Source: Patescibacteria group bacterium (GTDB lineage Bacteria > Patescibacteriota > Patescibacteriia > UBA2591 > JAQUPP01). From it: DNA of 64,000 nt. Location of the stretch: contig JAQUOF010000002.1 of NCBI GenBank assembly GCA_028717225.1, positions 19,249 through 83,248 of the forward strand, given 5' to 3'. The notes under the pieces were generated by a model that made no database searches, was not told where the DNA came from, and saw only the letters and a list, made by a program, of their open reading frames with translations. Made by a program: the position numbers and the translations under genes. Shown piece after piece: positions 5,554 through 55,340 of the stretch (positions are counted from its first letter, which is position 1; every line of letters starts with the position of its first letter).

Positions 5554-5826
5554 ATTAAAATTTAAAATAAAAAATTATTAAATAAAAAAATTGGACACAG
5601 AAAAATTACCTTTCGCCACCATATGGCGTCAGGATCTATTTTTATTCTTGCTAAATTTTAGTTGACCGAATATACAAAATTATTGGTCTATTTATTTTAA
5701 TACTTAATAATGATAACAGATAAGCCATTTTCTGTCAATCTATATTAAAATATTTATGACCCTTCTATTTTGGCTTAAATAAAGGAAAATTTGAGTTTTC
5801 CACAGTTTGTCCTTAATTTTCTAAAA

Positions 5827-8291: not shown

Positions 8292-8532
8292 TTAATTTCT
8301 TTTTATTTCTTCGCCAACGTTTGATAAGGAAGATTATGCCAATAATAAAAATTATTGGTAAGAATAAGATTTTAGATAAACGAAAAAATGTTATCTTTGC
8401 AATGACAGGATCAGAATATTGCATTGGACCATAAAGCTCTTGCGCCGTAACCTTTTGAGTTAAAAGAAAAAGAGTCGAGCCAATACCGGCGAAATAGGTT
8501 ATAAATTTTATGTTTTTATTAAATTTTTTCAT
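8257..8532 (-). CDS. Small secreted/membrane-anchored peptide, paralog 1 (91 aa): signal peptide, variable core, C-terminal TM plus basic tail
   Basis: MKKFNKNIKFITYF...AxA signal peptide. C-terminal LPIIFIIGIIFLIKRWRRNKKKLNAQKNSQ. It is one of three tandem paralogs with near-identical DNA at both ends and a divergent middle. Confidence 0.55.
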   Translation of the reverse strand: MKKFNKNIKFITYFAGIGSTLFLLTQKVTAQELYGPMQYSDPVIAKITFFRLSKILFLPIIFIIGIIFLIKRWRRNKKKLNAQKNSQSGKI

Positions 8533-8843
8533 ATCTTTCCATTTTGAGAATTTTTTTGAGCATTTAATTTCTTTTTATTTCTTCGCCAACGTTTGATAAG
8601 GAAGATTATGCCAATAATAAAAATTATTGGGAGAAATATTCCTTTCCATAAAGCCCACCATATATCCCCTGCATTCCTAGCCCCTATGTCTGGACCATAA
8701 GCATATTGTGTAGCTTGACGGAAATTACTCAGGTCTGGATTAAGTTCTGTTGCTGCCATGGCTTTTTGAACTAAAAGAAAAAGAGTCGAGCCGATACTGG
8801 CAAGATAGGTTATAAATTTTATGTTTTTATTAAATTTTTTCAT
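8529..8843 (-). CDS. Small secreted/membrane-anchored peptide, paralog 2 (104 aa)
   Basis: Same N- and C-terminal modules as paralog 1. The variable core is TELNPDLSNFRQATQYAYGPDIGARNAGDIWWALWKG. It overlaps its neighbours by 4 nt. Confidence 0.55.
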   Translation of the reverse strand: MKKFNKNIKFITYLASIGSTLFLLVQKAMAATELNPDLSNFRQATQYAYGPDIGARNAGDIWWALWKGIFLPIIFIIGIIFLIKRWRRNKKKLNAQKNSQNGKI

Positions 8844-9157
8844 ATCTTTCCATTTTGAGAATTTTTTTGAGCATTTAATTTCTTTTTATTTCTTCGCAAA
8901 TGTTTGATAAAAAAAATTATTCCAATAATAAAAATTATTGGGAAAAATAAAAATTTTAATAGGAGAAGATATTCCCCACTTGTAGTATTAGGATTGGGGC
9001 CAAAAGTAGATGGTGCTGGACCGTAAGCAGCTTGTCTAAAATTCCCAAGTTCATTATTCATTTCTTGTGCCATGACTTTTTGGGCTAAAAGAAAAAGAAT
9101 TGAGCCAATACTGATAAAATAGGTTATAAATTTTATGTTTTTATTAAATTTTTTCAT
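8840..9157 (-). CDS. Small secreted/membrane-anchored peptide, paralog 3 (105 aa)
   Basis: Same flanking modules. The variable core is EMNNELGNFRQAAYGPAPSTFGPNPNTTSGEYLLLLKF. Confidence 0.55.
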   Translation of the reverse strand: MKKFNKNIKFITYFISIGSILFLLAQKVMAQEMNNELGNFRQAAYGPAPSTFGPNPNTTSGEYLLLLKFLFFPIIFIIGIIFFIKHLRRNKKKLNAQKNSQNGKI

Positions 9158-12158: not shown

Positions 12159-12184
12159 TTTGTTGAAATTTTAGAGTGTAGCGA

Positions 12185-12360
12185 ATAAAATTTCGCTACA
12201 AATTTGAGTACCGAGCACTCAGTATGATTTACAAAATTTCTCCCGAATACTCATTAAAATAATTATACTGAAATTATCTTGAATAAACTATGCTGAGTGC
12301 TTGGTAAAGGTTTTGTTGCCCGCCTAAATTTTCGCTTCGCGAAAACTTTGGCGGGACAAA
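12185..12360. repeat. Structured intergenic repeat, family 2 copy A. The conserved ends aatttgagtacc ... ggtaaaggttttgt bracket a long palindrome.
   Basis: Shares terminal motifs with the copies at 31612-31721 and 34405-34571. It contains the nested palindromes gagcactcag/ctgagtgct and gcccgcc...ggcggga. Confidence 0.6.
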
Positions 12361-12365
12361 GCCCT

Positions 12366-12996: not shown

Positions 12997-14541
12997 TTAC
13001 TTTTTAAAAGATGTCGGACCCCGCTTAATCGCTTCATTAAATGGAGTATTATTTCTGGGCTGAGACTGAAAAACCTGACGATTTTTCTTCAAACAATCCT
13101 TGCAATAAATCGGCCTGATACCATCGGGAACAAACGGGACAAAAACAGTTTTGCCGCAACCATTACACACCGCTTCATATTTATCAACTCTTGATTCTTG
13201 AGATAAAGTTTGGCCGGCAGCCAAAACGCCGCTCCAGCGCATTATTTTTTCTTCAACCTGTTTTCTCGGTTCAGTGTATCGTTCGCGGGAAACTCTGATA
13301 ATTTTTTCTTTATTGTCTTCTACAATAGAAAGCGGGGGCAAAGTGGCGGCGGAAAACGGCTCGGAAGTGATGCCGTTAATCATCAATTTGACGTAAATAT
13401 TATATTTGTCCAAATCAACCAAATCGGTTTCTTCAAAACGAGGAGCGAATTCTTTGGCTAAAAATTCCGCGTCTTCAGCGCCAACCCTGAAAATAACCAT
13501 TGTGCCGACATTGCCGAATACGGCATCGCGCACTTTGCTGGAAGTTTCAGTGGCCAATTGGCCGATATATTGATGAGCAATAACCAAATTAAGATGATAT
13601 TTTCTGGCCTCGGAAAGAATATTGGCGAAAGAATCAGTGGCAAAATTTTGAAATTCATCAACATAAAGATAAAAATCATGACGGTCTATTTCGGGAATAT
13701 TAATTCTGCTCATGGCCGCCAATTGGATCTTGGTAATCATCATCGCGCCCAAAAGCGACGAAGCATCTTCGCCGATTCTGCCCTTGGAAAGATTCATTAT
13801 TAAAATTTTCTTTTCGTCCATTATCTGCCGCAAATCAATTTTTGATTTTATCTGACCGACAATATTTCTAATTAAAGCCGTAGAAAGAAATTGTCCAACT
13901 TTATTTTGAATTGGAGCAATGGCTTCGGCTCTTAAACGATCCGGATATTTCGGATATTCATCCAGCCAAAAAGCTTTAACCACCGGATCACTCAATTGGT
14001 CAACCACTTTGCCGCGGAATTCTTTATCAACCAAAATACGCATAATTCCAAGCAAAGTACTGCCCGGATATTCCAAAAGCGCCAAAATGGCGTTTCTTAA
14101 AACATATTCCAATCTCGGACCCCAAGAGTCAGCCCAAATTTTCTTAAAAATTCCAATCAAACCCGAAGCGACCAAATGCCGTTCCCCTGTTTCAACTCTT
14201 TCCAGAACGTTAAATGCAAACGGATATTCATAATCCGCCGGATTAAAATAAACCGTATCGTTAATACGATTCGCCGGAATAAATTCCAATGCTTTTTCGG
14301 CCAAATCGCCATGAGGATCGACAATTGCCACGCCATGTCCGGCAATAATATCCTGATAAATCATATTTTCCAACACGGTTGACTTGCCTACGCCGGTTTT
14401 TCCGACAATATACATATGCCGGCGCCGATCGTCGGTTCTAATGCCGAATTTTTGTCTTCTGCTGCGATAATTCGTTTCCGCAAATAAAATAACCTCATCT
14501 TCAATTTCTTTCTTTTTGATTTTGTCTTGTTCGGATTCCAT
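12997..14541 (-). CDS. HerA/FtsK-like (DUF87-type) P-loop ATPase with C-terminal zinc ribbon
   Basis: Walker A IVGKTGVGKST is followed by a DPHGDL motif (HerA/DUF87-like DPHGEY). The C-terminus has CNGCGK...YCKDC. Confidence 0.5.
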   Translation of the reverse strand: MESEQDKIKKKEIEDEVILFAETNYRSRRQKFGIRTDDRRRHMYIVGKTGVGKSTVLENMIYQDIIAGHGVAIVDPHGDLAEKALEFIPANRINDTVYFNPADYEYPFAFNVLERVETGERHLVASGLIGIFKKIWADSWGPRLEYVLRNAILALLEYPGSTLLGIMRILVDKEFRGKVVDQLSDPVVKAFWLDEYPKYPDRLRAEAIAPIQNKVGQFLSTALIRNIVGQIKSKIDLRQIMDEKKILIMNLSKGRIGEDASSLLGAMMITKIQLAAMSRINIPEIDRHDFYLYVDEFQNFATDSFANILSEARKYHLNLVIAHQYIGQLATETSSKVRDAVFGNVGTMVIFRVGAEDAEFLAKEFAPRFEETDLVDLDKYNIYVKLMINGITSEPFSAATLPPLSIVEDNKEKIIRVSRERYTEPRKQVEEKIMRWSGVLAAGQTLSQESRVDKYEAVCNGCGKTVFVPFVPDGIRPIYCKDCLKKNRQVFQSQPRNNTPFNEAIKRGPTSFKK

Positions 14542-14542
14542 A

Positions 14543-14673
14543 CCAGGTAGTGAAACTTTGACCAGGCAATAAGATTATTCCATTTTATTGTCCGGTTTTA
14601 ATTAAATTAATTAGGTTTTATTCTATATGTCGGGTAGTATTTTATGACAAATAAGTCAAAGTTCTACTACCTG
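14543..14673. repeat. 20-bp near-perfect inverted repeat (ccaggtagtgaaactttgac / gtcaaagttctactacctgg) with a ~90 bp AT-rich spacer
   Basis: Read directly. It lies between the HerA-like gene start and the GT4 gene stop. Confidence 0.5.
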
Positions 14674-14744
14674 GCATGGTAAATAGTATAGCAAAAAATA
14701 TTAAAAACTTCAAGCCCCCTTATAAACCTAACACATTTTAAAAA

Positions 14745-14804
14745 TTTTGTCCGTCGCTAGTGAAGCGACGTTCGCGGAGCGTGGAGCGAACAGCGCGGAC
14801 AAAA
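14745..14804 (-). terminator. GC-rich hairpin followed by a T-run, immediately 3' of the GT4 transferase gene
   Basis: ttttgtccgtcgc...gcgcggacaaaa has outer complementarity and a GC-rich core inside an AT-rich genome. On the minus strand it is followed by aaaattttt. Confidence 0.45.
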
Positions 14805-14805
14805 T

Positions 14806-21474: not shown

Positions 21475-21564
21475 AGTTTTGTAATTACACTATATATGAC
21501 GTGGAATCCGGGAATTTGTGACACTTGTCCTGAGCTGTTCGGCACTGAGCTCACGGCCGAAGTG

Positions 21565-21624
21565 CTTGTCGAAGGGCTCGCCCTGAGCTTGTCGAAGGGC
21601 TCGCCCTGAGCTTGTCGAAGGGCT
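21565..21624. repeat. GC-rich 23-bp tandem repeat (cttgtcgaagggctcgccctgag) x ~2.6
   Basis: Read directly, with units at 21565, 21588 and 21611. It sits in the sigma / anti-sigma intergenic region and overlaps the sigma stop codon. Confidence 0.8.
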
Positions 21625-22165
21625 ATTTCGTTTCCTTATCCTTTAAAATTTCCTTCAATTTATCCAGTCCCCGATGCACTCTTTGTCTGACATTGCTTTC
21701 CTTCTCGCCGATAATCTCGGAAATTTCTTTAAAAGAAAGTCCTTGAAAAAAATGAAACTCAACCACTTCCCGATATTCAGGTTTTAACAAAGATAAATAT
21801 TTTTTAATGTTATCAATGGCCATTTTTTGGTCCAATTGTTTTTCTGTTTCTTGCGGCGCGGCAATTTCAATCGCTTCGTCAAGCGAAAGATCATTTTGTC
21901 TTGTCCGATAAAAATCAATAATTAAATTTCTGGCGATTTTAAAAAGAAAGGCCTGGAAATTTTCAATTTCGCCTTCCTCTTTCAAATAATTAAAAATTTT
22001 AAGAAATGTTTCATTAGTTAAATCATTCGCTTTTTCTTCATCGGACACTTTAAAATAAATAAAACGGTAAATTTTATCCCGATATAAATCGTAAAATTTG
22101 GTAAAAGCAAATTCCCTGCCGCTTTTGACCTGATGAATGAGGATTTTTTCGGTTATCCTTAACAT
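21623..22165 (-). CDS. ECF-type RNA polymerase sigma-70 family factor
   Basis: 180 aa. The region-2-like segment is IARNLIIDFYRTRQ. The region-4 HTH is LSFKEISEIIGEKESNVRQRVHRGLDKLKE. Confidence 0.8.
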   Translation of the reverse strand: MLRITEKILIHQVKSGREFAFTKFYDLYRDKIYRFIYFKVSDEEKANDLTNETFLKIFNYLKEEGEIENFQAFLFKIARNLIIDFYRTRQNDLSLDEAIEIAAPQETEKQLDQKMAIDNIKKYLSLLKPEYREVVEFHFFQGLSFKEISEIIGEKESNVRQRVHRGLDKLKEILKDKETK

Positions 22166-22243: not shown

Positions 22244-23542
22244 TTATGGCTGCTGAGATACAGTCGCTTTAATAACTTTTTCTTCTCCGGCGCGCAAAAC
22301 CGTCAATTCTACCGTATCGCCCGGATTTTTCTGCTGGATTAGATAAGTCAGATCTTGATCTTTATTTAAGCTTATTCCGTCCACTTTTACGATAATATCA
22401 GCGTTATTAAGGCCTGCTTTCTGAGCCGGACTGGAAATAACAGGAGAACCAAAGACAATAGCTCCATTGGTCAAATCCTTGAAAAGCGAGCTGGAAATAC
22501 CGGGTGCTTCTTCTATGCGCAAATAATCAACACCCAAATAAGGCCGTTTAATTTTCTTATCCTTTAAAACTTGATCAATTAAAGTTTTAAACTGCCAAGA
22601 AGGAATAATTTTTTCTTGAGATATCAGACCAACCTCGGCGCCGTCTAATCCGAAAATCACTCCGCCGGGAAAAAGACTTGGAGAAATCTGGGAATCTAAC
22701 AATATATAGTCGTCAAATTTGTCAGTGGAATGAACCAAGTCGTCGGTTTTATTAATATTTTTAAAACGCGGATTACTGATTTCGGTAAAATTTATTTTAT
22801 TGAATTTATCCCAAACAATAACTTGCTCCCCTGCTTTAACTTCCTCGGCCAAGGCGAATTTCACCACTCCCAAATTTTGGGCGGTAATTTTTATAAAACT
22901 TATGCCGGTTACGGAATCTTCTAAAATTTCTTCAACAGGATAAACTTTATTTTCCGCGTCAACGGCCACATATTTTTGTTTTGCGTCAAAATCTCCTCCG
23001 CTGGCCAGCCAACCATCACTGGTAATAATCAAGCCAAGTGATTTAACTTGCCAAGGCGCGTAAATTTGATCCAAAAATGACAATTTGGCCTTGCTTGAGG
23101 CTTCTTTGGCTGAGAAAATCCTGACCATTTTCAAAGATAAGTCATTAACTAAAGCAGCGGCTCTGGCATCACTGGTGACGGTAACTTTTTTTTCCGTAAC
23201 CAAGGTTACTTCGTGGGTGGGAAAATATTTAGTCAAACTTATTTCTTGTAAAAATGGAATTTTGATTGTCTGGCGGGTTAAAAGAAAAAGGCTGCCGCCA
23301 ATACCGGAAGCCAAACCGAAAATTATTGCCAAAATAACAGCCAACCACACCCAACCCCGAGGAGTCGTCAGCGGTTTTTGAAAATTATTAAAAGACTGGT
23401 CGTTATAAAATTTTTGGACGCCGTCTTTTAATTCTTCTTGACGTTCTTTTTTTATTTCATCTCTCATACTTTTTTTAACATCAACTGTTTCTTTTTTGTC
23501 TATTTCGTCAACAACGACGATTCTTTGTTTTTCTTTACCCAT
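22244..23542 (-). CDS. Membrane-anchored HtrA-like PDZ protein with no apparent catalytic serine triad (pseudo-protease). The start is probably the internal Met at ~23467.
   Basis: N-terminal TM. A C-terminal PDZ domain runs from GISSSLF...GDTVELTVLRAGEEKVIKA. The position of the GNSGGP serine motif reads SLFPGGVIFGLDG, and no catalytic His is evident. Confidence 0.45.
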   Translation of the reverse strand: MGKEKQRIVVVDEIDKKETVDVKKSMRDEIKKERQEELKDGVQKFYNDQSFNNFQKPLTTPRGWVWLAVILAIIFGLASGIGGSLFLLTRQTIKIPFLQEISLTKYFPTHEVTLVTEKKVTVTSDARAAALVNDLSLKMVRIFSAKEASSKAKLSFLDQIYAPWQVKSLGLIITSDGWLASGGDFDAKQKYVAVDAENKVYPVEEILEDSVTGISFIKITAQNLGVVKFALAEEVKAGEQVIVWDKFNKINFTEISNPRFKNINKTDDLVHSTDKFDDYILLDSQISPSLFPGGVIFGLDGAEVGLISQEKIIPSWQFKTLIDQVLKDKKIKRPYLGVDYLRIEEAPGISSSLFKDLTNGAIVFGSPVISSPAQKAGLNNADIIVKVDGISLNKDQDLTYLIQQKNPGDTVELTVLRAGEEKVIKATVSQQP

Positions 23543-28899: not shown

Positions 28900-28975
28900 A
28901 GATTAGCTTATTAGGAATTAGCTTTTTAGCTTCTTAGAAATTAATTTGTAACTTCCTATCTTAAAAAGCTGAACT
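28900..28975. repeat. Intergenic repeat family 1, short form (AAGCT-rich: agcttattaggaattagctttttagcttcttag...)
   Basis: Directly abuts the mutM start codon. It is homologous to the ends of the 30286-30483 and 55166-55340 elements. Confidence 0.55.
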
Positions 28976-29050
28976 TGGTGGGCGCACTAGGAATCGAACC
29001 TAGGGTCTTCGCAATGTGAATGCGACGTTTTACCATTAAACTATGCGCCC
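28976..29050 (-). tRNA. tRNA-Val (anticodon CAC), 75 nt including the encoded CCA
   Basis: Acceptor GGGCGCA/TGCGCCC, D-stem GTTT/AAAC, anticodon stem TCGCA/TGCGA with loop TTCACAT, T-arm CTAGG-TTCGATT-CCTAG, and a 3' ACCA. Confidence 0.85.
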
Positions 29051-29067
29051 GATTCAGATAAAATCCC

Positions 29068-30285
29068 CTAGAATGAACCCGCCAATTTATACATTGGCAA
29101 TATAATAGCCGCCATCATTCCGCCAACCACTACGCCCAAGAAAATAATAATAATCGGTTCAAGAAGAGTAACCAATCTTGATAAAATATTTTCAACTTCA
29201 CGGGAATAAAAATCAGCCAATCTTCCCAAAACTTCATCCAATTTGCCGGTTTCTTCGCCCACTGACAATAGATGGGAAACCATTTTGGGAACATAACTGG
29301 ATTTAATAAGAGTAGAGCTGACAGATCTACCTTCTTCCACGTCTTTAATTGTTTGAAAAATCAAATCTTTAAAAATACTATTTTCCACCACTTCGGCTAC
29401 TATTTTAAGAGCTGAAGTCAAAGGTATTCCGCCGACAAGCAGCGTGCCTAAAGAACGGGTAAAACGAACGATATATAAATTTTGGAAAAGCAAACCGAAA
29501 ACAGGAGCTTTTAAAATTAATTTGTCCCAAATTTTTTTTCCTTCCGAAGTTTTTAAAAAAAATCTTAAAAATATAACCAGAGCAATAATCAATGGAATTA
29601 AAAAAATCACGTAATGCTGCAAAAAATTACTGGTATTTATCAAAAACTGCGTAGACATCGGCAATTGCGCACCTGATTCTTTTAAAACGCTGGTTAACTG
29701 AGGAATAACAAACAGCATCATCAGAATCATCACGCTGATTACCATTATAATAACAAAGAGCGGATAGATCATCGCTCCTTTTATTTTATTGCTTAAATCA
29801 AAACTTTTTTCTTGCTCGTTGGCCAAATAATTCAAGACTTCGTCCAACCGGCCGGCTGTTTCACCGGCTCTGACCATATTGATATAAAAATCATTAAAAA
29901 CCTTGGGATACTTGGCTAAAGCGGAAGAAAATCTGATTCCCCCTCTCACGTCTTCGGCAATTGCCCCGACGACACCCTTTAAATATGTATCATTGGTTTG
30001 TTTAACTAAAATTTCCAGACATTTTACCAAAGGCAAACCGGCGGAAACCATGGTTGAAAGCTGGCGAGATAAAAAAACCAAATCTTTCGGTTTAACACCG
30101 CTGAATAAATTTATTTTAAAATTAATAGGACGGCGCAATATAGATTTTGTACCGCCCTCAACAAGAGATAAAATAATAAGATCGCGGGAAGTTAAAACTT
30201 CCATCGCCGCCTCTTGATTTAAAGCATCAACAATTCCTTTAACTGTTTCGCCTTTTAAATTTTTAGCTTTATATTCGAATAACAT
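29068..30285 (-). CDS. pilC: Type IV pilus assembly platform protein PilC (GspF family)
   Basis: 405 aa with two GspF-type repeats and three TM segments. It is the last gene of the pil cluster. Confidence 0.8.
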   Translation of the reverse strand: MLFEYKAKNLKGETVKGIVDALNQEAAMEVLTSRDLIILSLVEGGTKSILRRPINFKINLFSGVKPKDLVFLSRQLSTMVSAGLPLVKCLEILVKQTNDTYLKGVVGAIAEDVRGGIRFSSALAKYPKVFNDFYINMVRAGETAGRLDEVLNYLANEQEKSFDLSNKIKGAMIYPLFVIIMVISVMILMMLFVIPQLTSVLKESGAQLPMSTQFLINTSNFLQHYVIFLIPLIIALVIFLRFFLKTSEGKKIWDKLILKAPVFGLLFQNLYIVRFTRSLGTLLVGGIPLTSALKIVAEVVENSIFKDLIFQTIKDVEEGRSVSSTLIKSSYVPKMVSHLLSVGEETGKLDEVLGRLADFYSREVENILSRLVTLLEPIIIIFLGVVVGGMMAAIILPMYKLAGSF

Positions 30286-30483
30286 AAAATTAGCTTTTTA
30301 GGAATTACCTGCCCGCCATATGCCTAATGTCATATTTAGGTTTAATAAATGAAATTATAAAATTAATCTATGTTCTAAATTAATTAATTCAGACAGGCTT
30401 TGGCAGGCGGGGCTTTTTAGCTTATTAGACAACGCTTCTTAGTCCCTAAAAAGCTAAGAAGCTACAAGCTAAAAAGCTGTTTT
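30286..30483. repeat. Intergenic repeat family 1, full form (~198 bp). It fills the whole gap between pilT and pilC.
   Basis: It is ~92% identical to 55166-55340. It consists of AAGCT-rich flanks plus a ~115-bp insert (cctgcccgccatatgcc...gacaggctttggcaggcgggg) that is absent from the short copies. Confidence 0.8.
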
Positions 30484-31560
30484 TTACCTTCTTAATAACG
30501 ATTTTAACATTTCTTCGTCAACGCAATTTTTAATCGCATCTTCAAGTGAGATTTTACTGGAAGTCACCAAATCGGCCAAATATCTGTCCATGGAAACTGA
30601 TTTTGTATCTTCGCCTGTTTGTAAAAAGGTTGATAATTGATGAAGCTTGCCTTCGGCAATAATAGTTCTAATACTGGGCGGAGCAGATAAAACCTCAAGG
30701 GCTCTTACTCTCCCACCGCCAATTTTAGGCACAAGTCTGGTAGCGATAATACCGGCTAAATTTTCACTGAGAAAATATCTGATATTTTCTTCTTCGCTGG
30801 TTGGGAAAAAATGAAGTATTCTTTTGATCGTCTGAATGGATGAGCCCGTGTCCATAATGGCAAATATTAAAGTACCGGCTTCAGCTAAAGCAAAAAGTTC
30901 TTCCATTGTTTCGGCATTTTTAATTTGTGAAATCATCACCACGTCAACGTGACCCCTCTCTCTGATGAAATTTAATCCTTCTTTAAAAGATAAAACATCT
31001 CGACCAACTTCTCTCTGTTCAATTATACTTTTAACACCGGTTAAATTATACTTAATCGGTTTTTCCAAAGTGGCGATATATTTATTTTGATTTTTATTAA
31101 TATTGTCAATCAATGAAGTCACCAAGCTGAACCTTCCCGAATCGTGAGGACCGGCGACAAAAACAATTCCCTTTGATAAATTGGTAAAATCTTGAACCAT
31201 TTTAGGCAGTTCAATTTTTTCCTGATCGAGAGCTTCTTGAGACAACAATTTTAAACAAATCGCCGGAGTGTTTTTTTGGTAATAAACATGAATCTGAACC
31301 GACCCGAGTTTCCCGATTTCCTTAACGGTTATAATCTGCTTTTTTTCTTGAAGCTCGCTTTGTTCTTTATTGTCCAGAACAGCGGAAATAACATCACTGA
31401 TAAAAGAAGCGGCTAAAATATTTTCGCCGCTCAGCGGCTGTATTTTTCCGTCAAGATTGATAAAGGGAATTTGCGCGTTAATTAAATAAATTTCCGAAAC
31501 CTTTTTTTCGGCTGCGGAAACGCAAATGCGATTTAAAATCATTTCTGTTTGAGTATACAT
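30484..31560 (-). CDS. PilT-family protein with degenerate ATPase motifs (putative pseudo-ATPase)
   Basis: It aligns with PilT throughout (IGGGRVRALEVL, AEGKLHQL). But the Walker A is GPHDSGRFS (canonical GPTGSGKST), the Asp box is TLEKPIKY (TIEDPIEF), the Walker B is VVMISQIKN (ILVGEMRD), and the His box is IMDTG (TLHTT). Confidence 0.75.
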   Translation of the reverse strand: MYTQTEMILNRICVSAAEKKVSEIYLINAQIPFINLDGKIQPLSGENILAASFISDVISAVLDNKEQSELQEKKQIITVKEIGKLGSVQIHVYYQKNTPAICLKLLSQEALDQEKIELPKMVQDFTNLSKGIVFVAGPHDSGRFSLVTSLIDNINKNQNKYIATLEKPIKYNLTGVKSIIEQREVGRDVLSFKEGLNFIRERGHVDVVMISQIKNAETMEELFALAEAGTLIFAIMDTGSSIQTIKRILHFFPTSEEENIRYFLSENLAGIIATRLVPKIGGGRVRALEVLSAPPSIRTIIAEGKLHQLSTFLQTGEDTKSVSMDRYLADLVTSSKISLEDAIKNCVDEEMLKSLLRR

Positions 31561-31611
31561 ACCAAATTTTTTAAAATTTTTAAATTATTTATAATGCGAA
31601 AAATTTTACTA

Positions 31612-31721
31612 AAAATTTGAGTACCCTGTTAAATGCCGCTTTACGGCAATTTCGCCTTTGGCGAAATTATTTAACAGGGTAAAGGTTTTGTAACTCCGAC
31701 TTAACGTCCGGAGACAAAACT
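31612..31721. repeat. Structured intergenic repeat, family 2 copy B (between pilB and pilT)
   Basis: aatttgagtacc-[ctgttaaat...atttaacag palindrome]-ggtaaaggttttgt, followed by the conserved hairpin aactccgacttaacgtccggagacaaaac. Confidence 0.65.
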
Positions 31722-31723
31722 CT

Positions 31724-33469: not shown

Positions 33470-33509
33470 ACCGGGTAGTAAAATTTTAATATTAAAATTA
33501 CAATAAATA

Positions 33510-34388: not shown

Positions 34389-34404
34389 ATACCAAAATTG
34401 TTGA

Positions 34405-34571
34405 AATTTATGAGTTACTATTGTGACGAAATAAATTTCATCACAATTTTGAGTACCCGCCCAAGTTTTTGGGCACTTATTTTTCTTTATTTTCTTAAAA
34501 TTTTTTAATAGTCCAAAAATCTGGGCGGGTAATGATTTTGTAGCTCCGACTTAACGTCCGGAGACAAAATT
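34405..34571. repeat. Structured intergenic repeat, family 2 copy C (between pilN and pilO)
   Basis: aattttgagtaccc-[cccgcccaag...cttgggcggg long-range palindrome]-ggtaatgattttgt, followed by the same ctccgacttaacgtccggag hairpin as copy B. Confidence 0.65.
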
Positions 34572-34573
34572 CA

Positions 34574-35497: not shown

Positions 35498-35590
35498 AAT
35501 ATTAGCTTATTAGGAATTAGCTTATTAGCTTCTTAGGAATCAGCTTCTCGCCTAAAAAGCTAAGAAGCTACAAGCTAAGAAGCTGACTTA
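35498..35590. repeat. Intergenic repeat family 1, short form (between pilM and pilN)
   Basis: ttagcttattaggaattagcttattagcttcttagg...cctaaaaagctaagaagctacaagctaagaagctg. It lacks the 115-bp central insert. Confidence 0.6.
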
Positions 35591-44663: not shown

Positions 44664-47600
44664 TTATTCGCACCAATCGCCCGATATTGACCATTCATTT
44701 TTGGCCGCGCTGAAAGTAATTGATCCAGTATAACTGCCCACTGCTTGAGGAGAAGGCACTTCCAATCCCCACCAAACATCTTTGGTCGCTTTGCTGCCGG
44801 AAGAAAAAGTTTTACAGCAATTTAAGTCCGCGTGAGCTCCGGGGTCAACCAATAAACTTGTGCCGCTGGCATAAGCAGTACTGGTAGCAAGGGCGTATTT
44901 TTGCTTTCCCACCGCAATGCTGTTTCCTCCCGAAGTCATATTTACGCCGTATAAATTTATATCCAAAGAAACATTACCCGTGGCGGTAACAGTTGTCGTT
45001 TTATCCAAAGGATCATTTTTAGCGCCGGCACCCAAACTGCCATAATTTATCGGTGAAGTAACATCTAAAGCTAATAAAGAATTTACATCAGGCGCGTCAG
45101 CCGCACTGTAACCTGAACCTGTTGAATCATCTTCGTCAGTAGCCTCAATAAATGCTCGCCAATATTGAGAAACCCAAGGAGTGCCCGTATCAGTCGGATC
45201 AGCAAAAAATTGCATTGAAATTGTGCAAGTATAAACAGCGTCAGTTCCGGAACAAGAAGTTTCAGTGCAAGAAGCAACACTGTAACAATTATTATCATTG
45301 GCTGAACAGGCCTGGGCGCTTGTTACTCCGGAACGATAAATTTTTGCCGTCACTCCGGTAATAGTATCGCATCCATCCGGATCTGAAACATCGGCTGTGG
45401 CTGAAACTGATTTAGTGGTATTCTCAATCAAATCAATAGCCACTTGGCCATTTAATTGAACATCGCTCACGGTCGGCGCCTGACCGCCGCCGGCCGTAAT
45501 ATCGGCTATTTTTGTATAACTATCCAATTCGGAAGTTGCGTTTCTTGCTTTAAAACAATAAACCGTGCTGTCCAAAGCATTGGCGGTAAATTGAAAACTG
45601 TATTCCGCTTCAGTAAATTGACTGGCAGTCAAAGTAATACTGTTTGTTTGATTGGACGCATTTTCTATTATTTTTCCGGCCACAAAAGCATAGTTACTTG
45701 GAATGCTTAATTGTCTTGTAGCCGCTGCTTGATCAACAAAATAAGTGGAGGCGGACATACAAGCGGCTTCGCTGCCGCAACTTCCGGCAACCGGAACATC
45801 AGTGTAAGTTTCGTCTCCGCAAGATCCTCCTGTTTGAACCGCGTATTGCAAACGATAATTATAACCGCTGGCAGTTGCCGTAGTATTTTTAAAAGAAAAT
45901 CTTAATCTGATATTTGTTGATAATGGCTGACTGGTTGTCGCATCCTCGGCCGCTTTCCAGGTGGCCGCCGTACCCGACCCTGTTTCCTCACTTCCATAAG
46001 TTAATAAACTATTATTTGTAGAATTATAATCAGCCGTAATCCAAGCAGTGCTTCTGGCGGTTTGAGAAAGACGAACCTCATCTATTTTTCCTTCTAAATA
46101 ATTCGTATCAGCGGTTCGGCCAATATCAAAATTACTGGCATTTTCAGCCGTGCCGGTCGTGACGGTTACATATTGCCATGCGTCGGCCGCTAAGGTACTG
46201 GTGACAACACCATTAACATAAATTGTTGGTGTGCCGGTAAAACCGGTCACAGTTACCGTGCCGCCGCTGACCCAAATATATTTTGTAGTGCTGGTAAGAT
46301 TAATAAAATATTCAGTCGTAGTTTCCGGATAAATCCAAAAACTTACGGTTTTAACAGTGCTTGGTCCGGTGCCGATATCAATATAATCATTGCTTCCGTC
46401 AAAACTATCAGCGCCGTTTATTTGACCAACCGCGCCGCCGGTTACTCCATTAATACAACCTCCATCTATATTATGAGTAGTGGAATCCAACTCATCAATA
46501 AGTATATATTTCATAGAATAGGGCGAAGAACTGCCTGTTCTCCAAGCTCCTTCAAGCACGGGCTTGATTGCGTATTTTGAAATCCTGGAACGGAAGGCAA
46601 GGTTAGTTGAAGTGGTATCACTGATAGCCATTCTGCTTCCGAAATTGGCTCCAGCATCAGTACTTTTATAATATACGGTTTGACCTGTACCGGAATTATA
46701 CATAGCGGTTACGTAAACAACATCTCCATAAGCAACGATTGATGCGTAACAATGATTATTTCCCGCATCAAGAGTGATAGTACTTTCCCAAGTGTCATCC
46801 GCGTTTTTTCTGGCATATTTCAAAGGTCTGTAGGTCGGACCATAACCACCCCAAGCAACATGAAGACGATTACTGGCATCCATAGAACTGATAACATGCG
46901 ACCAAACATCAGAATATGTTCCTCCTGATATATCTGTCCAGCTTCCGGCCCAAGTCCAAGTCGGACCCGCGCTGTAAGTCGCTTTTTGATATTCAATTTT
47001 TCCGGCTATAGCAGCCACTATATGTACATTCCTGCTGGAATCAACTTGAATAACCGGCATTGTCCACGCATCATCCGTGGCTAAAGTAGTCGGACTGGCA
47101 CTCCAATTACCGGCTGAATTATTTTCATAATATACATTATAGGTAGTACTGTTATTAAAAAATACCCAAGTTACATGGACAACTCCAGCTGAATCAACCG
47201 CCATACTTGCGTCAGATACACCATTTGTACCTGTCGCTCCTTCGTGAACGGTTTCTTCACTCCCGACATCCCAACTCGTACCATTCCAAGTTAATTTTCT
47301 GTAAAATATCCAGTGTTTAAGATCATTGGAGTCAGAATATATAAGATGGATATCTTTGCCATTCGGATCAACGTCAACAGTCGGAAGGTTTCCTTTTCCG
47401 GGCGTGCTTCCGATTTGAGTTTCATCAGTCCAAGTAAGTCCATTGTCAGTACTTCTCTTCCACCATAAAGTTCGGTCGCTGGTGCCAGCTTTGGCATAAA
47501 ATAAATGAAGAGTTTGACTATCATCGTCAGTCCTGACTAAAGTTCTTGAAAAAGTATCTGACACGTGCGTAGTATCGGCGCTTACCACTGTTCCCTGAGA

Positions 47601-50600
47601 AGCAATATTTAAATGATGCACTGATTCAAAATCAGAATCCCAAACATTGGTCGGATCTTCTCCATTAGCCGTGTCCGTGGTTCGGTAATAAATAAAAAAT
47701 CTGTTATCATCGCTGATCGCGGTTCTAACATTTGGAATTTTTACCCAGACTTCCCCTGTGTCCGCGGTCTGATTAAATGATTCTCTTTCATATTTTAAAA
47801 GAGTTGTCCCGTCAAATTGAGTAAACCTGATGTCATATCCGTTTGCGTTAAAATTTGACAAATCAATTCCCGGAAAACTGGCCAAACTTACCCGAACAGG
47901 AAAATCAACCAAATCAGAAGTTATTTTACTGTTATCAATAGTCAGCATTCGCCGAGTCGTGTATGTCAAACCGTCAACAGTCCAACTTCCGTTTTCTCCT
48001 CCATCATCATTTCTCCAGCGAAAATGAGTTTCGTCAACATTCGGAGGAGTATAAATAGTTGCCTCCGCATATTTTGTGTAAGTAAAATTTGTGGCGGTTC
48101 CGCCATTGGTTAAACGAAAACAATAAGTTCCTCCGGCCGTGGCCGCAGTCAAAGCTTTGATTGAATATTCAATTTCCGCGAATTCCGTACTGGCCAAAGT
48201 AATGCCGGCCGTAGTGCTTGACGTATCTTTTTGGGCAGCATTGGTAGTTTTGAAAGTTGTATTTTCGTCTGTCACCTTACCATTGGCAAAATTGGCTACA
48301 TTGGTCGTATCATTACCGTCGGTCAAATTTGATGAATCAGACATATCCCAATCGCCATTTGCCGCGCCAACATCAGTCCAAGAAACAATAGCTCCGCAAG
48401 TGGTAGATTTTGCTCCATACTCAAGACGATAAGTGATTGCCGCAGATGAACAAGTGCCTTCATTGGAAGCTTCTATTCTAACTCTTGCAGTTGTATTTTT
48501 TGCCAAACTGCTGAGCACAGTGTCTTCCGTACTGCCGGTGGCTGAAGTCGCGGCTGATTCCGAGCCATCATCATTTCTCCAATGATAATGTATTTGCTCA
48601 ATAGTTGGAGAACTATAAACAGTCGCTTCGGGATATGTTGTATAAGTAAAATTTGTAGTAGAACCGGCATTGGTTAAACGGAAACAATAAGTTCCTCCGT
48701 CCGTCGCGGCAGGAAGAGCTTGGATTGAATATTCAATTTCAACAAAATCAGTAGCAGCCAAAGTAATACCGGCTGTAGTGCTTGACGTATCTTTTTGGGC
48801 GGCATTGGGAGTCTCAAAATTGGTATTTTCATCTGTCACTTTACCATTGGCAAAATTAGCAACATTGGTTGTGTCATTTCCATCAGTTAAATTTGATGAA
48901 TTAGACATATCCCAATCGCCATCTGCTGCGCCAACGTCAGTCCAACTGGAAATAGCCGCACAAGTGGTAGATTTTGCTCCATATTCAAGACGATAAGTGA
49001 CCGCGCCTGATGCACTGGCACCTTCATTGGAAATTTCTACTCTGATTCTTTTAGTTGTGCTTTCCGGCAAGCAACCAAGGGTTGTATCTTCAGTATTGCT
49101 GGTGGCTGAAGTCGCGGCTGATTCCGAACCGTCATCATTTCTCCAGTGATAATGAATTTGCGTAAGATTTTCAGCCGGCGGCGCGATATCGGCAACCGTT
49201 TCTCCAAAAAGATCATCATCGTCATCATCATACCAAACCACATATAATCTTTCCGTACTTAATAAATTACCGCGCATATATCTGTAATCATCTGCTCCGG
49301 AATCTATGGCAGATGATTCAGCGCTCCAATTAGTACCGCTGTCAGTAGAACTTTTATAATACACATTTACTGACGATCCTAGTGTTCCTCCTTTCACGTA
49401 AGCCACATAAACATTACCGGTATTTTCATCAATTAAAGTTACGGGGGCAGCAGTAACATCACTGTTTGTTATAACATCTGTTTTCGCAGTCCAACTTCGC
49501 GTACTGTCGGAAAATGTATAAAATTTTATATCATTCGTACTGAAACCGGTATAATTAGAAAAGGCTAAATAAACATTGCCGGTAGATTTTTTTATAGAAG
49601 CTGAAAACCATCCGTAACCGGGCTTACTATTATCATTCATCGCGCCAACAGTAGTCCAGCTTGTCGCCCATGTATCAGTTGATTCGGCATAAACCAAAGA
49701 GTAAACATTATGGTTGGTTGGATCCGCTTTAATGGCAATAATGTCATTATTAGTCAATAAAGGAAGTATTTGAATCTGATCTCCCGACACAGTACTCCAG
49801 GCCGCCGGCGACGTTGTAGTCCATGTAGCTCCATTGCCATCGGTTGATTTAAATATTTGACCACCGGTCGGCGTACTCGCTGATTGAAAACCGGCAAAAA
49901 GATAACCGCTTCCGCCTTTGGTAATATATGGCGCAGGGTTGGTAACCTCAGTAAAAGTTGTGGCTGTACAAATTGTCACTAAACCCAGGGAACGCAGAGT
50001 GTCACCATTGGTATCCAAATATGTATACCAAAGATCACTTCCTGTGTCTTCGGCAGCGGCAATATGAATTTTTGTCCCGCTGGTATCGCCCGGCGTCCAT
50101 TGATCGTACCAAACCGAAGCAACTGTCCAATTTTTACTTGTATCAATAACCACAGGATTGCCCCAAGTTGCGCCCTTGTCAGTAGTTTTTTTATAAGCCA
50201 AATCTTGCGAAGTGAGATCCATAAAAAAAACATAACCAACTGTGTCACTGATAAAAACTACAGCCGGTGAAGGACCTGCTTCATCAGTACCATCAACTAT
50301 ATCTGAATCAATCGTAGCCGCGGCATCAGACGCGATTTGCCAATCTCGCGCTTCTTCAAATTGGCCGATTTGCAACGGTCCCAATAAAAATATATAAGGG
50401 CTGACATCCGGCGCGTCAAATTCATATTTCAATTCATAACTCTCCCCTGCTTTCCAATCAGCGTTCCAAAAAATTTCTTTCGTATTCGGATCATTTGAAT
50501 TTCTGATTTCTGATTCGGAATTTATAATTTGGAAAGAGTCCGGAATTTTTTCTACAATTTCTCCGTTAAAATCCTGGTTTGCTTTTATTTTCAATTTCAT

Positions 50601-52136
50601 CTCGTAATTCGCCAGCGGATAAATTCTGGTCGGTCCGATTCTTTCAATTTCAAAAGACACGGAATCGCGGACTTCAAAAGAGTCGGTTATTTCATAACCA
50701 TTATCAAGATTGGTGAGAGTTATCGCGTAAGTCCCCGCTTCTCCTGTCGGATAATAAGCAAAATAATCCGGCACATCAATCACGTTGTCCGGTCCGCATT
50801 GGCCGCTGTATTGAATTGTTCCGTCTCCGGTTGATAATTCCGCTGAAATTTTTGATTTTTTATTTTCAATTTTTAATTTAAGATTCGCGTCGCAGATTGT
50901 GTGCCCGTTATCTTTCAAAACCGCCATTTGCAAATAGGCTGTTTCATTGGGCAAATAAATTGATTTGTTGGTATTTAATGTCAAAACGCCCCAAGTAAAT
51001 TCTTGAATTGTTTCTTTATCGCCTTGTTTGATTTTTAATTTATAGAGACCGGGCTTGAAACTTCTCTTATCGCCGGAACGCGAAATTTTTACTCTATTGC
51101 CTTGATTAATCAATCCGTCCTTGCTTTCCTTGCCCATCGGATCAACTAAAACAAAATCTTTTTTCTCTTTCTTGAAAAAGTTTTTTATTTTCGCGAATAA
51201 ACTTTCCGTTAATTCAAAAGTCGGTTCTTCGTTGTTTTTAAAATTCTTTATTTCTTTAATCGGTTCTTGCTGTTCTAAAACTTTTTCCGGCTGTTCTGTG
51301 GTTGTTATTTCCAGCCAAGCCGCGTCCAGATACACTGACGATAATTCAGAATTTGAAGAATAAGTGAATCTGAATTTCAAATTTTCCAAATTGTCCCAAT
51401 TTTTAAAAATCGGCAAAGCGTCAAGAAAATAACCGCCGTTTAAATTATTGGAAATTTCGTCTTTCAAATCAAATTCATTTAATTTTTGCCAAGTATTATT
51501 AAAATAATATTCAATTTGCAGCTTGTCTCCTTCTTGTCCTTTACCGGCCAAAGACATTCTCAATTGGACATTCTCAATTTTATTTTCTTTGAAACTCTCT
51601 GAAACTGAAAAATTTGAAATTTCTAAAATTTTCTCAACAGTCTGCGGCTGTATCGGCGCTTCTATCAACGGCTCAGAAATTGGCGGCTCTACGGTTGGCG
51701 CTTCAATTATTGGCTCAATTTCCGGCGCTTGCTCAATTGGATTATTAATATCCGGTGGAGTTGAGGTTGAATTTTCAGCAGTAATTTCTTCGGCTTGCGC
51801 CACGCTGTTTTTAAATAAATCCTTTATCTTATTTAAAATTACGATTAAAAATTGTTTCGGATTTCTAATTTCGGATTTTGAAATTTCCGTCTGAACGGAC
51901 GAGAGATAAGCCGAATTTTCTTGATTAAATTCTTCAAAAGCCGCATTTTGCGTTAAATCCTGAGTTAAAACCGCTTGCGGATTCTGCCAGTCGCCCGAGA
52001 AAGCAGTGGGAAAAATTTTTATTTCATTTGTTTCCGCCGCTTTGGTTAATGGACTGTAAAATAAAAAACAAACCATGCCGATTAAAAACAAAGCAGTGGT
52101 TAAAATAAAAACAATTGATGATTTGGAATATCTCAT
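44664..52136 (-). CDS. Giant secreted surface protein (2490 aa) with BNR/Asp-box repeats, LamG-like lectin domains and internal ~213-aa tandem repeats
   Basis: N-terminal TM/signal. There are at least 5 SxDxGxTW Asp-boxes (YKKTTDKGATW, FKSTDGNGATW, YKSSTDSGTNW, WKRSTDNGLTW, YKSTDAGANF). A LamG_3-like block is VKTVSFWIY...IDEVRLS. The IHYHWRNDDGSE repeats are listed separately below. Confidence 0.7.
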   Translation of the reverse strand: MRYSKSSIVFILTTALFLIGMVCFLFYSPLTKAAETNEIKIFPTAFSGDWQNPQAVLTQDLTQNAAFEEFNQENSAYLSSVQTEISKSEIRNPKQFLIVILNKIKDLFKNSVAQAEEITAENSTSTPPDINNPIEQAPEIEPIIEAPTVEPPISEPLIEAPIQPQTVEKILEISNFSVSESFKENKIENVQLRMSLAGKGQEGDKLQIEYYFNNTWQKLNEFDLKDEISNNLNGGYFLDALPIFKNWDNLENLKFRFTYSSNSELSSVYLDAAWLEITTTEQPEKVLEQQEPIKEIKNFKNNEEPTFELTESLFAKIKNFFKKEKKDFVLVDPMGKESKDGLINQGNRVKISRSGDKRSFKPGLYKLKIKQGDKETIQEFTWGVLTLNTNKSIYLPNETAYLQMAVLKDNGHTICDANLKLKIENKKSKISAELSTGDGTIQYSGQCGPDNVIDVPDYFAYYPTGEAGTYAITLTNLDNGYEITDSFEVRDSVSFEIERIGPTRIYPLANYEMKLKIKANQDFNGEIVEKIPDSFQIINSESEIRNSNDPNTKEIFWNADWKAGESYELKYEFDAPDVSPYIFLLGPLQIGQFEEARDWQIASDAAATIDSDIVDGTDEAGPSPAVVFISDTVGYVFFMDLTSQDLAYKKTTDKGATWGNPVVIDTSKNWTVASVWYDQWTPGDTSGTKIHIAAAEDTGSDLWYTYLDTNGDTLRSLGLVTICTATTFTEVTNPAPYITKGGSGYLFAGFQSASTPTGGQIFKSTDGNGATWTTTSPAAWSTVSGDQIQILPLLTNNDIIAIKADPTNHNVYSLVYAESTDTWATSWTTVGAMNDNSKPGYGWFSASIKKSTGNVYLAFSNYTGFSTNDIKFYTFSDSTRSWTAKTDVITNSDVTAAPVTLIDENTGNVYVAYVKGGTLGSSVNVYYKSSTDSGTNWSAESSAIDSGADDYRYMRGNLLSTERLYVVWYDDDDDDLFGETVADIAPPAENLTQIHYHWRNDDGSESAATSATSNTEDTTLGCLPESTTKRIRVEISNEGASASGAVTYRLEYGAKSTTCAAISSWTDVGAADGDWDMSNSSNLTDGNDTTNVANFANGKVTDENTNFETPNAAQKDTSSTTAGITLAATDFVEIEYSIQALPAATDGGTYCFRLTNAGSTTNFTYTTYPEATVYSSPTIEQIHYHWRNDDGSESAATSATGSTEDTVLSSLAKNTTARVRIEASNEGTCSSAAITYRLEYGAKSTTCGAIVSWTDVGAANGDWDMSDSSNLTDGNDTTNVANFANGKVTDENTTFKTTNAAQKDTSSTTAGITLASTEFAEIEYSIKALTAATAGGTYCFRLTNGGTATNFTYTKYAEATIYTPPNVDETHFRWRNDDGGENGSWTVDGLTYTTRRMLTIDNSKITSDLVDFPVRVSLASFPGIDLSNFNANGYDIRFTQFDGTTLLKYERESFNQTADTGEVWVKIPNVRTAISDDNRFFIYYRTTDTANGEDPTNVWDSDFESVHHLNIASQGTVVSADTTHVSDTFSRTLVRTDDDSQTLHLFYAKAGTSDRTLWWKRSTDNGLTWTDETQIGSTPGKGNLPTVDVDPNGKDIHLIYSDSNDLKHWIFYRKLTWNGTSWDVGSEETVHEGATGTNGVSDASMAVDSAGVVHVTWVFFNNSTTYNVYYENNSAGNWSASPTTLATDDAWTMPVIQVDSSRNVHIVAAIAGKIEYQKATYSAGPTWTWAGSWTDISGGTYSDVWSHVISSMDASNRLHVAWGGYGPTYRPLKYARKNADDTWESTITLDAGNNHCYASIVAYGDVVYVTAMYNSGTGQTVYYKSTDAGANFGSRMAISDTTSTNLAFRSRISKYAIKPVLEGAWRTGSSSPYSMKYILIDELDSTTHNIDGGCINGVTGGAVGQINGADSFDGSNDYIDIGTGPSTVKTVSFWIYPETTTEYFINLTSTTKYIWVSGGTVTVTGFTGTPTIYVNGVVTSTLAADAWQYVTVTTGTAENASNFDIGRTADTNYLEGKIDEVRLSQTARSTAWITADYNSTNNSLLTYGSEETGSGTAATWKAAEDATTSQPLSTNIRLRFSFKNTTATASGYNYRLQYAVQTGGSCGDETYTDVPVAGSCGSEAACMSASTYFVDQAAATRQLSIPSNYAFVAGKIIENASNQTNSITLTASQFTEAEYSFQFTANALDSTVYCFKARNATSELDSYTKIADITAGGGQAPTVSDVQLNGQVAIDLIENTTKSVSATADVSDPDGCDTITGVTAKIYRSGVTSAQACSANDNNCYSVASCTETSCSGTDAVYTCTISMQFFADPTDTGTPWVSQYWRAFIEATDEDDSTGSGYSAADAPDVNSLLALDVTSPINYGSLGAGAKNDPLDKTTTVTATGNVSLDINLYGVNMTSGGNSIAVGKQKYALATSTAYASGTSLLVDPGAHADLNCCKTFSSGSKATKDVWWGLEVPSPQAVGSYTGSITFSAAKNEWSISGDWCE
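47860..49140. repeat. Internal tandem DNA repeat of ~639 bp (2 full copies plus a partial) inside the giant gene
   Basis: Protein repeats start at IHYHWRNDDGSE near residues ~1000 and ~1213, with a partial HFRWRNDDGGE at ~1425. The plus-strand shadow ORFs 48139-48432 and 48778-48996 are near-identical and offset by 639 bp. Confidence 0.7.
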
Positions 52137-55165: not shown

Positions 55166-55340
55166 AGATTAGCTTTTTAGGAATTACCTGCCCGCCATAT
55201 GCCTAATGTCATATTTAGGTTTAATAAATAGAGTTATAAAATTAATTTATGTTCTAAATTGATTAATTTTGACAGGCCTTGGCAGGCGGGGCTTTTTAGC
55301 TTCTTAGCCCTAAAAAGCTAAAAAGCTACAAGCTAAGAAG
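55166..55340. repeat. Intergenic repeat family 1, full form (~175 bp). It fills the whole gatC-gatA spacer.
   Basis: It is ~92% identical to 30286-30483 and includes the 115-bp central insert. Confidence 0.8.

Follow-up and report, generated by a model that had tools for sequence, protein, structure and literature searches.

Patescibacteria genomes are among the smallest and most tightly packed, yet several families of hairpins of 70–300 nucleotides (nt) are wedged between stop and start codons in many of them, which raises the question of what these sequences are and how they came to be there. We addressed it in a 64,000-nt stretch of a Patescibacteria group bacterium (GenBank assembly GCA_028717225.1, contig JAQUOF010000002.1, positions 19,249 to 83,248), hereafter the window, which has 36.8% G+C and carries nearly all of its genes on the minus strand. 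An earlier note on this DNA had described four copies of an AAGCT-rich intergenic repeat, two of them holding a shared insert, and had read the arrangement as a MITE (miniature inverted-repeat transposable element) inserted into an element resembling repetitive extragenic palindromic (REP) sequences. We name the outer element, an AGCT-rich intergenic near-palindrome, F1, and its four window copies c1 to c4 (Table 1); loci of other genomes and metagenome contigs compared with the window carry L-numbers. F1 is a repeat family that forms a hairpin and occupies stop-to-start gaps. Our comparison shows that its elements entered this lineage, or were exchanged between lineages, rather than being inherited as leaders. 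The reading that we favour, with a probability of roughly 55%, is that F1 is non-autonomous palindromic mobile DNA in the style of REPINs or of the insertion sequence (IS) family IS200/IS605, co-transcribed and tolerated, or that it was spread by recombination between lineages.

The four copies are where the earlier note had placed them, and the 34-nt right-hand motif occurs three times in the window with at most one mismatch, against an expectation of 0.00 from 100 shuffles. They lie at the junctions pilT-like/pilC, pilM/pilN-like, gatC/gatA and tRNA/mutM. In the sense of the genes, the upstream stop codon is followed by the F1 5′ arm, made up of TAGCTTnT units and containing GCTTGTAGC; the element then turns at a short variable apex and returns through a 3′ arm of CTAAnAAG units with the terminal TAATTCCTAAWAAGCTAAT, from which 2–4 further bases lead to the ATG. 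The whole is a fold-back of 70–110 nt built of 7–8-nt units, whose arms pair as an imperfect hairpin of about 30 bp with a single, asymmetric internal loop where GTAG of the 5′ arm faces TAATTCC of the 3′ arm. The predicted folds are more stable than those of dinucleotide shuffles (z = –3.7 to –3.9) and leave the start codon and the preceding 5–6 nt unpaired at the helix foot. Within the window, F1 takes up the whole space between one gene's stop and a few bases before the next ATG, the gatC TAG stop (55341–55343) even overlapping the first TAGCTT unit of c4, and F1 does supply all of the sequence just upstream of the start codons, as had been proposed. The leader contains no AUG or GUG, one TTG in the 5′ arm (CTTGTAG), and stops in all frames.

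Copies c2 and c4 hold a further element. The insert said to be shared by two copies is present in both and is near-identical (92.5%), although its length is about 105 nt and not about 115 nt. Its first 26 nt occur exactly twice in the window (shuffle expectation 0.00), and all 8 differences between the two copies fall at positions 14–62, in the AT-rich interior. The GC-rich, imperfect terminal inverted repeats reported for it are confirmed (CCCGCCTGCC and GGCGGGCAGG) and could pair in two registers; folded alone, the two inserts give z = –4.1 and –4.3 against shuffles. This hairpin is unrelated to the F1 around it. Both inserts break the F1 3′ arm at one identical point, between AAAAAGC and TAATTCC, that is, at the internal loop, and comparison of the filled site (AAAAAGC, insert, TAATTCC) with the unfilled site AAAAAGCTAATTCC reveals nothing duplicated. 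F1 is patchy and insertion-like, and within its internal loop lies the insert as a second, nested hairpin element. The two inserts need not be separate insertions: either copying of the composite as a unit or a structural hot spot at this site could account for them.

Nesting is common in this family and counts in favour of mobility. In L005 and L023 the same site, to within one base, is taken by a different GC hairpin, and apex insertions of 100–230 nt are found in F1 copies of L023 and of L066/L075. Since such extra hairpins (L005/L023, L023, L041, L066/L075) occur only at the apex or internal loop, the overall F1 fold is preserved. A short hairpin with the insert termini (CCCGCCTG...TGGCGGGCAGG) also stands free of any F1 at L102 12787–12921, at the junction between pilB and the gene before it (x), which indicates that the GC-clamped module is an entity in its own right. 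Beyond this, the 0.8 Mb of related loci yielded no further insert copies other than orthologues, and an insert 22-mer had no exact match in GTDB genomes, exact-match scans being insensitive. We likewise found no parent IS with matching ends in the window, in the 0.8 Mb of fetched loci, in GTDB genomes (exact 22-mer) or in viral contigs, the same limit on exact-match scans applying here. Two 17-mer matches of viral contigs to an insert end lie in coding DNA of 65% GC and were set aside as chance; viral contigs contained no F1. Purifying selection on the c4 insert, which is 100% identical in strains averaging 92%, was considered and dropped, the whole surrounding 700 nt being near-identical.

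Orthologous junctions bear directly on whether F1 was inherited. Through PilM homologues we found seven syntenic relatives (L099–L102 and L105–L107; PilM 69–77% identical), the more complete of which share the order ligA-gatC-gatA...pilM-N-O-x-pilB-pilT-pilC-(tRNA)-mutM. No F1 cluster was found anywhere in the loci of these seven relatives. Their pilM/pilN junctions measure 3, 4, 4, 16, 21, 35 and 47 nt and lack F1, and their gatC/gatA junctions measure –11, 2, 3 and 8 nt, two more being filled with other elements. The earlier note had named copies at every orthologous site as the observation that would make F1 a conserved leader; the seven relatives present the opposite. Because their orthologous junctions lack F1, and because the family is scattered in distant Patescibacteria, we conclude that F1 is not a conserved leader. 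The conspecific strains (L001–L004, L056 and L060), which are 91–99.7% identical to the window along the aligned stretches, keep the elements, with a gatC/gatA copy one 8-nt unit shorter than that of the window. In L060, F1 and its insert at pilT/pilC are replaced by a sister element, F2, the switch falling exactly at the stop and at the ATG. The neighbouring pilT is 99.6% and pilC 96.1% identical to the window, suggesting a recombination tract. F2 also occupies pilT/pilC in L102 and L106, and for this reason it is probably the older occupant of that junction.

F1 extends well beyond this species. Searching metagenome contigs for exact matches to the 19-nt 3′ module gave 78 stretches, about half of which are real AGCT-unit fold-backs from many unrelated samples and the rest chance matches, and a 23-nt pattern returned 16 stretches in GTDB genomes of Parcubacteria, Paceibacterota, Moranbacteria, Kuenenbacteria and other Patescibacteria metagenome-assembled genomes (MAGs). 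Several copies per locus are seen in other MAGs. Outside the window, too, F1 occupies stop-to-start gaps. Its 5′ end usually falls no more than a few bases from the upstream stop, which in some cases is itself the first unit's TAG, and its 3′ end is 0–8 nt from the start of a long open reading frame (ORF). The genes downstream include rplE, rpsN, rpsM, rplP, rpmH, tuf, recR, dnaB, pilN, pilB and glycosyltransferases. Since copies lie inside ribosomal-protein operons (at rplX/rplE, rplE/rpsN and rpsC/rplP, with others upstream of rpsM and tuf), F1 must be co-transcribed with operons and is not a terminator. A crowded case is L039 (JBAZMD010000008.1), where the S10/spc operon at 1565–7010, normally among the tightest in bacteria, has spacers of up to about 300 nt and five intercistronic elements, three F2 and two F1.

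Between organisms with PilM proteins that share only about 30% identity, F1 copies are 74–90% identical, and three lineages very far apart (the window, L025 and L097) have F1 at pilM/pilN. By the GTAG/TAATTCC asymmetry, 21 copies have the canonical orientation relative to genes, 3 are reversed and 4 are ambiguous, to which a reversed copy before tuf in L041 is added; a fixed absolute polarity, assumed at first, was dropped in favour of a bias. GC skew and gene-strand coverage did not separate gene-linked from replication-linked orientation. Because F1 is nearly a perfect palindrome, an A-rich AAGCT arm stands next to the ATG in either orientation. Solo 3′ arms, with no partner arm, also occur directly before start codons, some of them just downstream of –10-like boxes. 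In the literature that we searched, we found no description of such elements, or of REP systems with their REP-associated tyrosine transposases (RAYTs), in Patescibacteria, and F1 is apparently an undescribed family of insertion-like intergenic elements found across the phylum.

If F1 is mobile palindromic DNA, it would probably move as a single-stranded hairpin handled by a trans-acting HUH/Y1 enzyme, or by recombination, leaving no target duplication, and its unit number would change by slippage. It would be transcribed together with the operon; the fold-back would keep the stop of one gene and the start of the next within a few nucleotides of each other at the helix foot, and an A-rich, stop-rich leader would remain before the downstream ATG. 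Expression of the downstream cistron in an organism poor in Shine-Dalgarno (SD) sequences would survive such an insertion, allowing the element to persist. Several observations weigh against this proposal. No filled and empty pair was found between near-identical strains, and insertion or excision was therefore not seen directly. The copy count is that of the 64-kb window. No transposase, Y1_Tnp included, was found among the 46 window ORFs scanned or by tblastn, so that the matching enzyme that the earlier note had suggested looking for was not found in the window, and the RAYT-like genes of two relatives (below) are flanked by palindromes other than F1. The conservation of F1 across classes, its orientation bias of about 21:3, its recurrence at pilM/pilN and the solo 3′ arms between –10-like boxes and start codons all hint at function; F2, besides, shows two compensatory base-pair changes and is retained at pilT/pilC in three relatives.

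Known systems resemble F1 in part. REP sequences, bacterial interspersed mosaic elements and REPIN-RAYT systems (PMC3116915, PMC3333891) are likewise short, multi-copy, extragenic palindromes that form hairpins, are often intercistronic, leave no target-site duplication and vary in copy or unit number between strains, and RAYT-like genes with REPIN doublets are present in the close relatives L100 and L107. However, a REP unit is GC-rich, 20–40 nt long and arranged in doublets, with a conserved tetranucleotide 5′ of the hairpin foot (GTAG in E. coli; PMC3333891), whereas F1 consists of AT-rich arrays of 7–8-nt units over 70–110 nt, with its GTAG in the internal mismatch of the 5′ arm opposite TAATTCC and not at the foot. 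No cognate RAYT of F1 was found in the window, and F1 abuts start codons and spans several candidate phyla or classes, while REPs are usually lineage-specific. The comparison with REP sequences made in the earlier note therefore holds as an analogy only. As for bacterial MITEs (PMC10969869), F1 and its insert share with them small size, absence of coding capacity, inverted termini, apparent non-autonomy, nesting and polymorphism between relatives. A target-site duplication, sought on the suggestion of the same note, was found neither at the insert nor around c1–c4 and about 15 other F1 copies whose flanks were read for direct repeats; nor was a parent IS with matching ends found in the sequences scanned, and the insert termini form a GC clamp rather than transposase-type inverted repeats. 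What survives of the proposed MITE in a REP-like element is the nesting at an identical point and the insertion-like character of the outer element; a MITE in the strict sense, with its duplication and a related IS or transposase in the window, is not supported.

Correia elements (NEMIS) of Neisseria, which are 100–150 bp long, alter the 5′ and 3′ untranslated regions of their neighbours and are RNase III substrates (PMC2649163), are similar to F1 as hairpin-forming intergenic elements co-transcribed with adjacent genes. Their 26-bp terminal inverted repeats, TA duplication, IHF sites and promoter-forming ends are all missing from F1, and the sequences are unrelated. The palindrome-associated transposable elements derived from IS200/IS605 share hairpin ends, lack of duplication and strand-biased insertion, and are mobilised by an HUH Y1 enzyme; in F1 we did not identify the hairpins, at left and right ends and with guide and cleavage tetranucleotides, that define these elements, and it has no tnpA or tnpB nearby. 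GC clusters and hairpin elements of mitochondria, for example the RHEs of sponges (PMC2800124), are also patchy GC palindromes nested in AT-rich spacers and in each other, although they belong to a different domain of life and genetic system and are unrelated in sequence. Integron attC sites were ruled out, the flanks being core genes in conserved synteny and the window having no integrase. F1 is set apart by its unit-built arms, its flush stop-to-start fit, the absence of a target duplication and of any IS parent in the sequences scanned, and its distribution across classes.

The features that fit least easily with tolerated mobile DNA suggest a use by the host, an explanation that we regard as possible though rather unlikely and that does not exclude mobility. 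On this account F1, F2 and a third hairpin type, F3, would be beneficial intercistronic RNA modules of SD-poor Patescibacteria, mobility being secondary: the hairpin of about 30 bp could be an RNase III substrate whose cleavage frees the downstream mRNA with a very short A-rich leader, or it could bridge stop and start and let terminating ribosomes re-initiate. The filling of stop-to-start gaps, with the 3′ end 0–8 nt from the ATG in most copies, is what one would expect, as are the presence of F1 inside essential, highly expressed operons, the 21:3 orientation bias, a sequence conserved while flanking proteins are about 30% identical, the repeated occupation of pilM/pilN (window, L025, L097), solo 3′ arms acting as promoter-proximal leaders and insertions confined to positions where the fold is kept. 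The window genes themselves fit: their starts lack SD sequences and often have a TATAAT-like box 6–9 nt before the ATG. A Parcubacteria subgroup lacks the anti-SD motif (PMC9297842), a condition with which the gene style of the window agrees, and genomes of the candidate phyla radiation (CPR) keep RNase III, RNase J and PNPase (PMC12641178). Against this stand the orthologous junctions of the seven relatives, where F1 is missing and most gaps are only 2–47 nt, together with reverse-oriented copies such as that before tuf in L041 and the decayed 5′ arm of c1. Rfam covariance models detected only tRNAs above the gathering threshold in the window, and nothing credible at a permissive E ≤ 5–10. 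Compensatory covariation is absent from the variable F1 unit positions (19/33 pairs canonical versus 19.8 in shuffles), and sense and antisense fold energies are indistinguishable, the sense strand being the more stable in 24/45. On the sense strand U-G pairs outnumber C-A pairs 12:4, which can be cited for a host use, yet a ratio of only 12:4 weighs against selection on the helix. A broader version, in which F1, F2 and F3 form a phylum-wide intercistronic RNA toolkit that compensates for SD loss, either through RNase III release of near-leaderless cistrons or through stop-start bridging for 70S re-initiation, seems to us doubtful; bridging of this kind would parallel ribosome shunting in a prokaryote, with the A-rich (CUAAnAAG)n arm as the leader on which ribosomes land and the nested GC hairpins adjusting stability.

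The remaining explanations fare worse. A signal acting at the DNA level, whether a downstream promoter, an upstream terminator or an array of protein-binding or DNA-uptake sites, is quite improbable. The 8-bp unit period, the –10-like boxes beside some solo 3′ arms and a TTGACA hexamer point that way, and CPR bacteria rely on pili and DNA uptake. Yet the hexamer, which the earlier note had attributed to the insert, is found in c4 only, c2 reading TCAGACA, and it is antisense to the genes; in a consensus scan, the sense strands of the window copies showed neither a sigma-70-like promoter nor a terminator-like site, which leaves the hexamer without support as a promoter, and a terminator would harm ribosomal-protein operons. 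AGCT is not enriched in the window (186 sites in 64 kb versus about 216 calculated from base composition), which argues against the distribution of a DNA-uptake sequence. A reading of F1 as a conserved leader that regulates pilC, pilN, gatA and mutM in a gene-specific way, as a riboswitch, attenuator or operator, is largely refuted: four copies each before a start codon, and F1 at pilM/pilN in two distant lineages, would suit it, but orthologous junctions in the seven relatives are devoid of F1, which elsewhere precedes unrelated genes (ribosomal proteins, recR, dnaB, glycosyltransferases, tuf) and has neither an Rfam match nor covariation. We give as little credit to the idea that the insert is a small RNA gene or a stem-loop guide unit of the tandem interspaced guide RNA (TIGR) type. 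It has a stable GC-clamped hairpin (z of about –4), conserved termini and a variable interior, and TIGR-Tas systems are common in Patescibacteria (bioRxiv 10.64898/2026.09.09.750476), but no copy has a box C (RUGAUGA), CTGA is not conserved, there is no Rfam match for the insert, the window offers no tandem array and no Nop- or Tas-type protein, and only two copies exist in 64 kb, the 0.8 Mb of related loci adding nothing but orthologues.

F1 is not the only such family in the window, where many other intergenic gaps are filled by long hairpins that end at a start codon. F2 places the upstream TAA in a first stem (TAAAGAGTTTTGTC...ACAAAACCTTTACC), continues through a hypervariable GC-ended inner hairpin to GGTACTCAAATTT... 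and ends in TTTGGT directly before the ATG. Its two compensatory base-pair changes were seen among nine copies, and over 131 nt one of the window copies shares 92% identity with an F2 from the ribosomal-protein operon of another organism. The intergenic regions of the relatives are, in addition, rich in other short GC palindromes (GGGGTCTGACCCC, GGAGGCTCAGCCTCC, CCTACGAGGTCTCGCCTCGTAGG, TTGGAGACCAGGTCTCCAA), often with tandem half-site repeats, and pilT/pilC of L100 contains a complex unit of about 150 nt repeated four times. L100 and L107 share a syntenic Y1_Tnp gene with a weak match to the RAYT model (33.7 bits versus a cut-off of 80). The L107 gene has on either side a REPIN-like doublet, TTTGACAGGGTCCGACCCTGTCACGGTTAAACAGGGTCGGACCCTGTCAAA, that recurs at pilC/mutM; the arrangement resembles a RAYT/REPIN system in Patescibacteria. 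In the window, the corresponding position holds a cytidylyltransferase-like gene instead.

The genes around F1 were assigned with Pfam, which recognised Fpg/MutM, T2SSF/PilC and amidase/GatA downstream of the elements and PilM, T2SSE and GatC upstream. The ORF after PilM has no Pfam match, but both where it lies and how it begins (N-terminus MSINLLPE) are consistent with PilN. The statement in the earlier note that every copy precedes a minus-strand start, those of mutM, pilC, pilN and gatA, thus holds with the reservation that c1 is degenerate and follows a tRNA rather than an ORF. In the upstream regions of about 47 window ORFs, SD sequences are mostly missing, the sole clear AGGAGG standing before ORF 61139–61852. 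A TATAAT-like box lies 6–9 nt before the ATG of several genes (22244–23542, 58255–60918 and 55637–57634, for example), a proximity that suggests leaderless or very short-leader mRNAs for several window genes. AAGCUAA as a substitute SD sequence was rejected for this genome, where it stands upstream of only the four genes preceded by F1.

Table 1. Coordinates of F1, its nested insert, sister elements and associated genes. Positions are those of the window unless a locus is named.
Feature	Position	Strand	Remarks
F1 copy c1	28900–28975	minus	Degenerate: 3′ arm intact, 5′ arm decayed; between tRNA 28979–29050 and mutM ATG
F1 copy c2, 3′-terminal module	30286–30307	minus	Sense TAATTCCTAAAAAGCTAATTTT; adjoins pilC ATG at 30283–30285
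Nested insert in c2	30308–30412	minus	About 105 nt; GC-clamped hairpin, sense CCCGCCTGCC ... GGCGGGCAGG; AT-rich interior
F1 copy c2, rest of element (5′ arm, apex, proximal 3′ arm)	30413–30483	minus	Sense AGCTTTTTAGCTTGTAGCTTCTTAGCTTTTTAGGG...CTAATAAGCTAAAAAG; includes 5-nt linker to pilT-like TAA stop 30484–30486
F1 copy c3, without insert	35498–35590	minus	Between pilM and pilN-like ORF; imperfect hairpin of about 34 bp
F1 copy c4	55166–55340	minus	Between gatC and gatA; insert at 55187–55291
Nested insert in c4	55187–55291	minus	About 105 nt
pilC (T2SSF)	29068–30285	minus	Downstream of c2; Pfam
pilT-like T2SSE ATPase	30484–31560	minus	Upstream of c2; Pfam
F2, window copies	12159–12365, 31561–31723, 34389–34573	minus	
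F2, outside the window	L060 5159–5357; L102 15855–16035; L106 7453–7627; L039 2408–2678, 3024–3321, 5433–5673		
L039 operon elements			F2 at rplB/rpsS, rpsS/rplV, rpsQ/rplN; solo F1 3′ arm at rpsC/rplP; full F1 at rplX/rplE
F3 (third hairpin type)	14542–14805	minus	3′ foot ...ACTACCYGGT directly before ATG; upstream of TrwB/TraG-like ATPase gene 12997–14541
F3, short remnant	33470–33509	minus	Upstream of pilB
Other GC-palindrome regions	L099 9321–9621; L100 15826–16579; L101 15239–16559		L099 at pilB/pilT; L100 at pilT/pilC
Syntenic Y1_Tnp (PF01797) gene	L100 1351–2010; L107 2018–2674		218–219 aa; between Laminin_G protein gene and ligA; HFH (HUH-type) motif
Small paralogous ORFs	8257–8532, 8529–8843, 8840–9157	minus	91–105 aa; identical start regions, repeat period about 311 nt

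Three further features of the window were noted. A radical-SAM/SPASM enzyme gene (7200–8291, minus strand) is preceded by three tandem paralogous small ORFs, and the region 7200–9157 may encode a maturase of ribosomally synthesized and post-translationally modified peptides with tandem precursor genes. About three tandem copies of a GC-rich unit of about 24 nt (GCCCTTCGACAAGCTCAGGGCGA) lie at 21475–21622, upstream of a gene for an extracytoplasmic function-type sigma factor (21623–22165). Within the 2490-aa ORF 44664–52136, three tandem 564-nt repeats (48001–49161) that are 81–87% identical probably encode repeated domains of a surface protein.

Whatever the origin of F1, elements of this type can confound gene calling, operon prediction and the discovery of non-coding RNAs in CPR metagenomes. 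If the elements are used by the host, they would bear on the translation of internal cistrons in lineages without the SD/anti-SD interaction. If they are selfish, they would make up a class of small mobile DNA not described before, one that crosses boundaries between classes in the CPR, and would be useful for tracking recombination and strain turnover.

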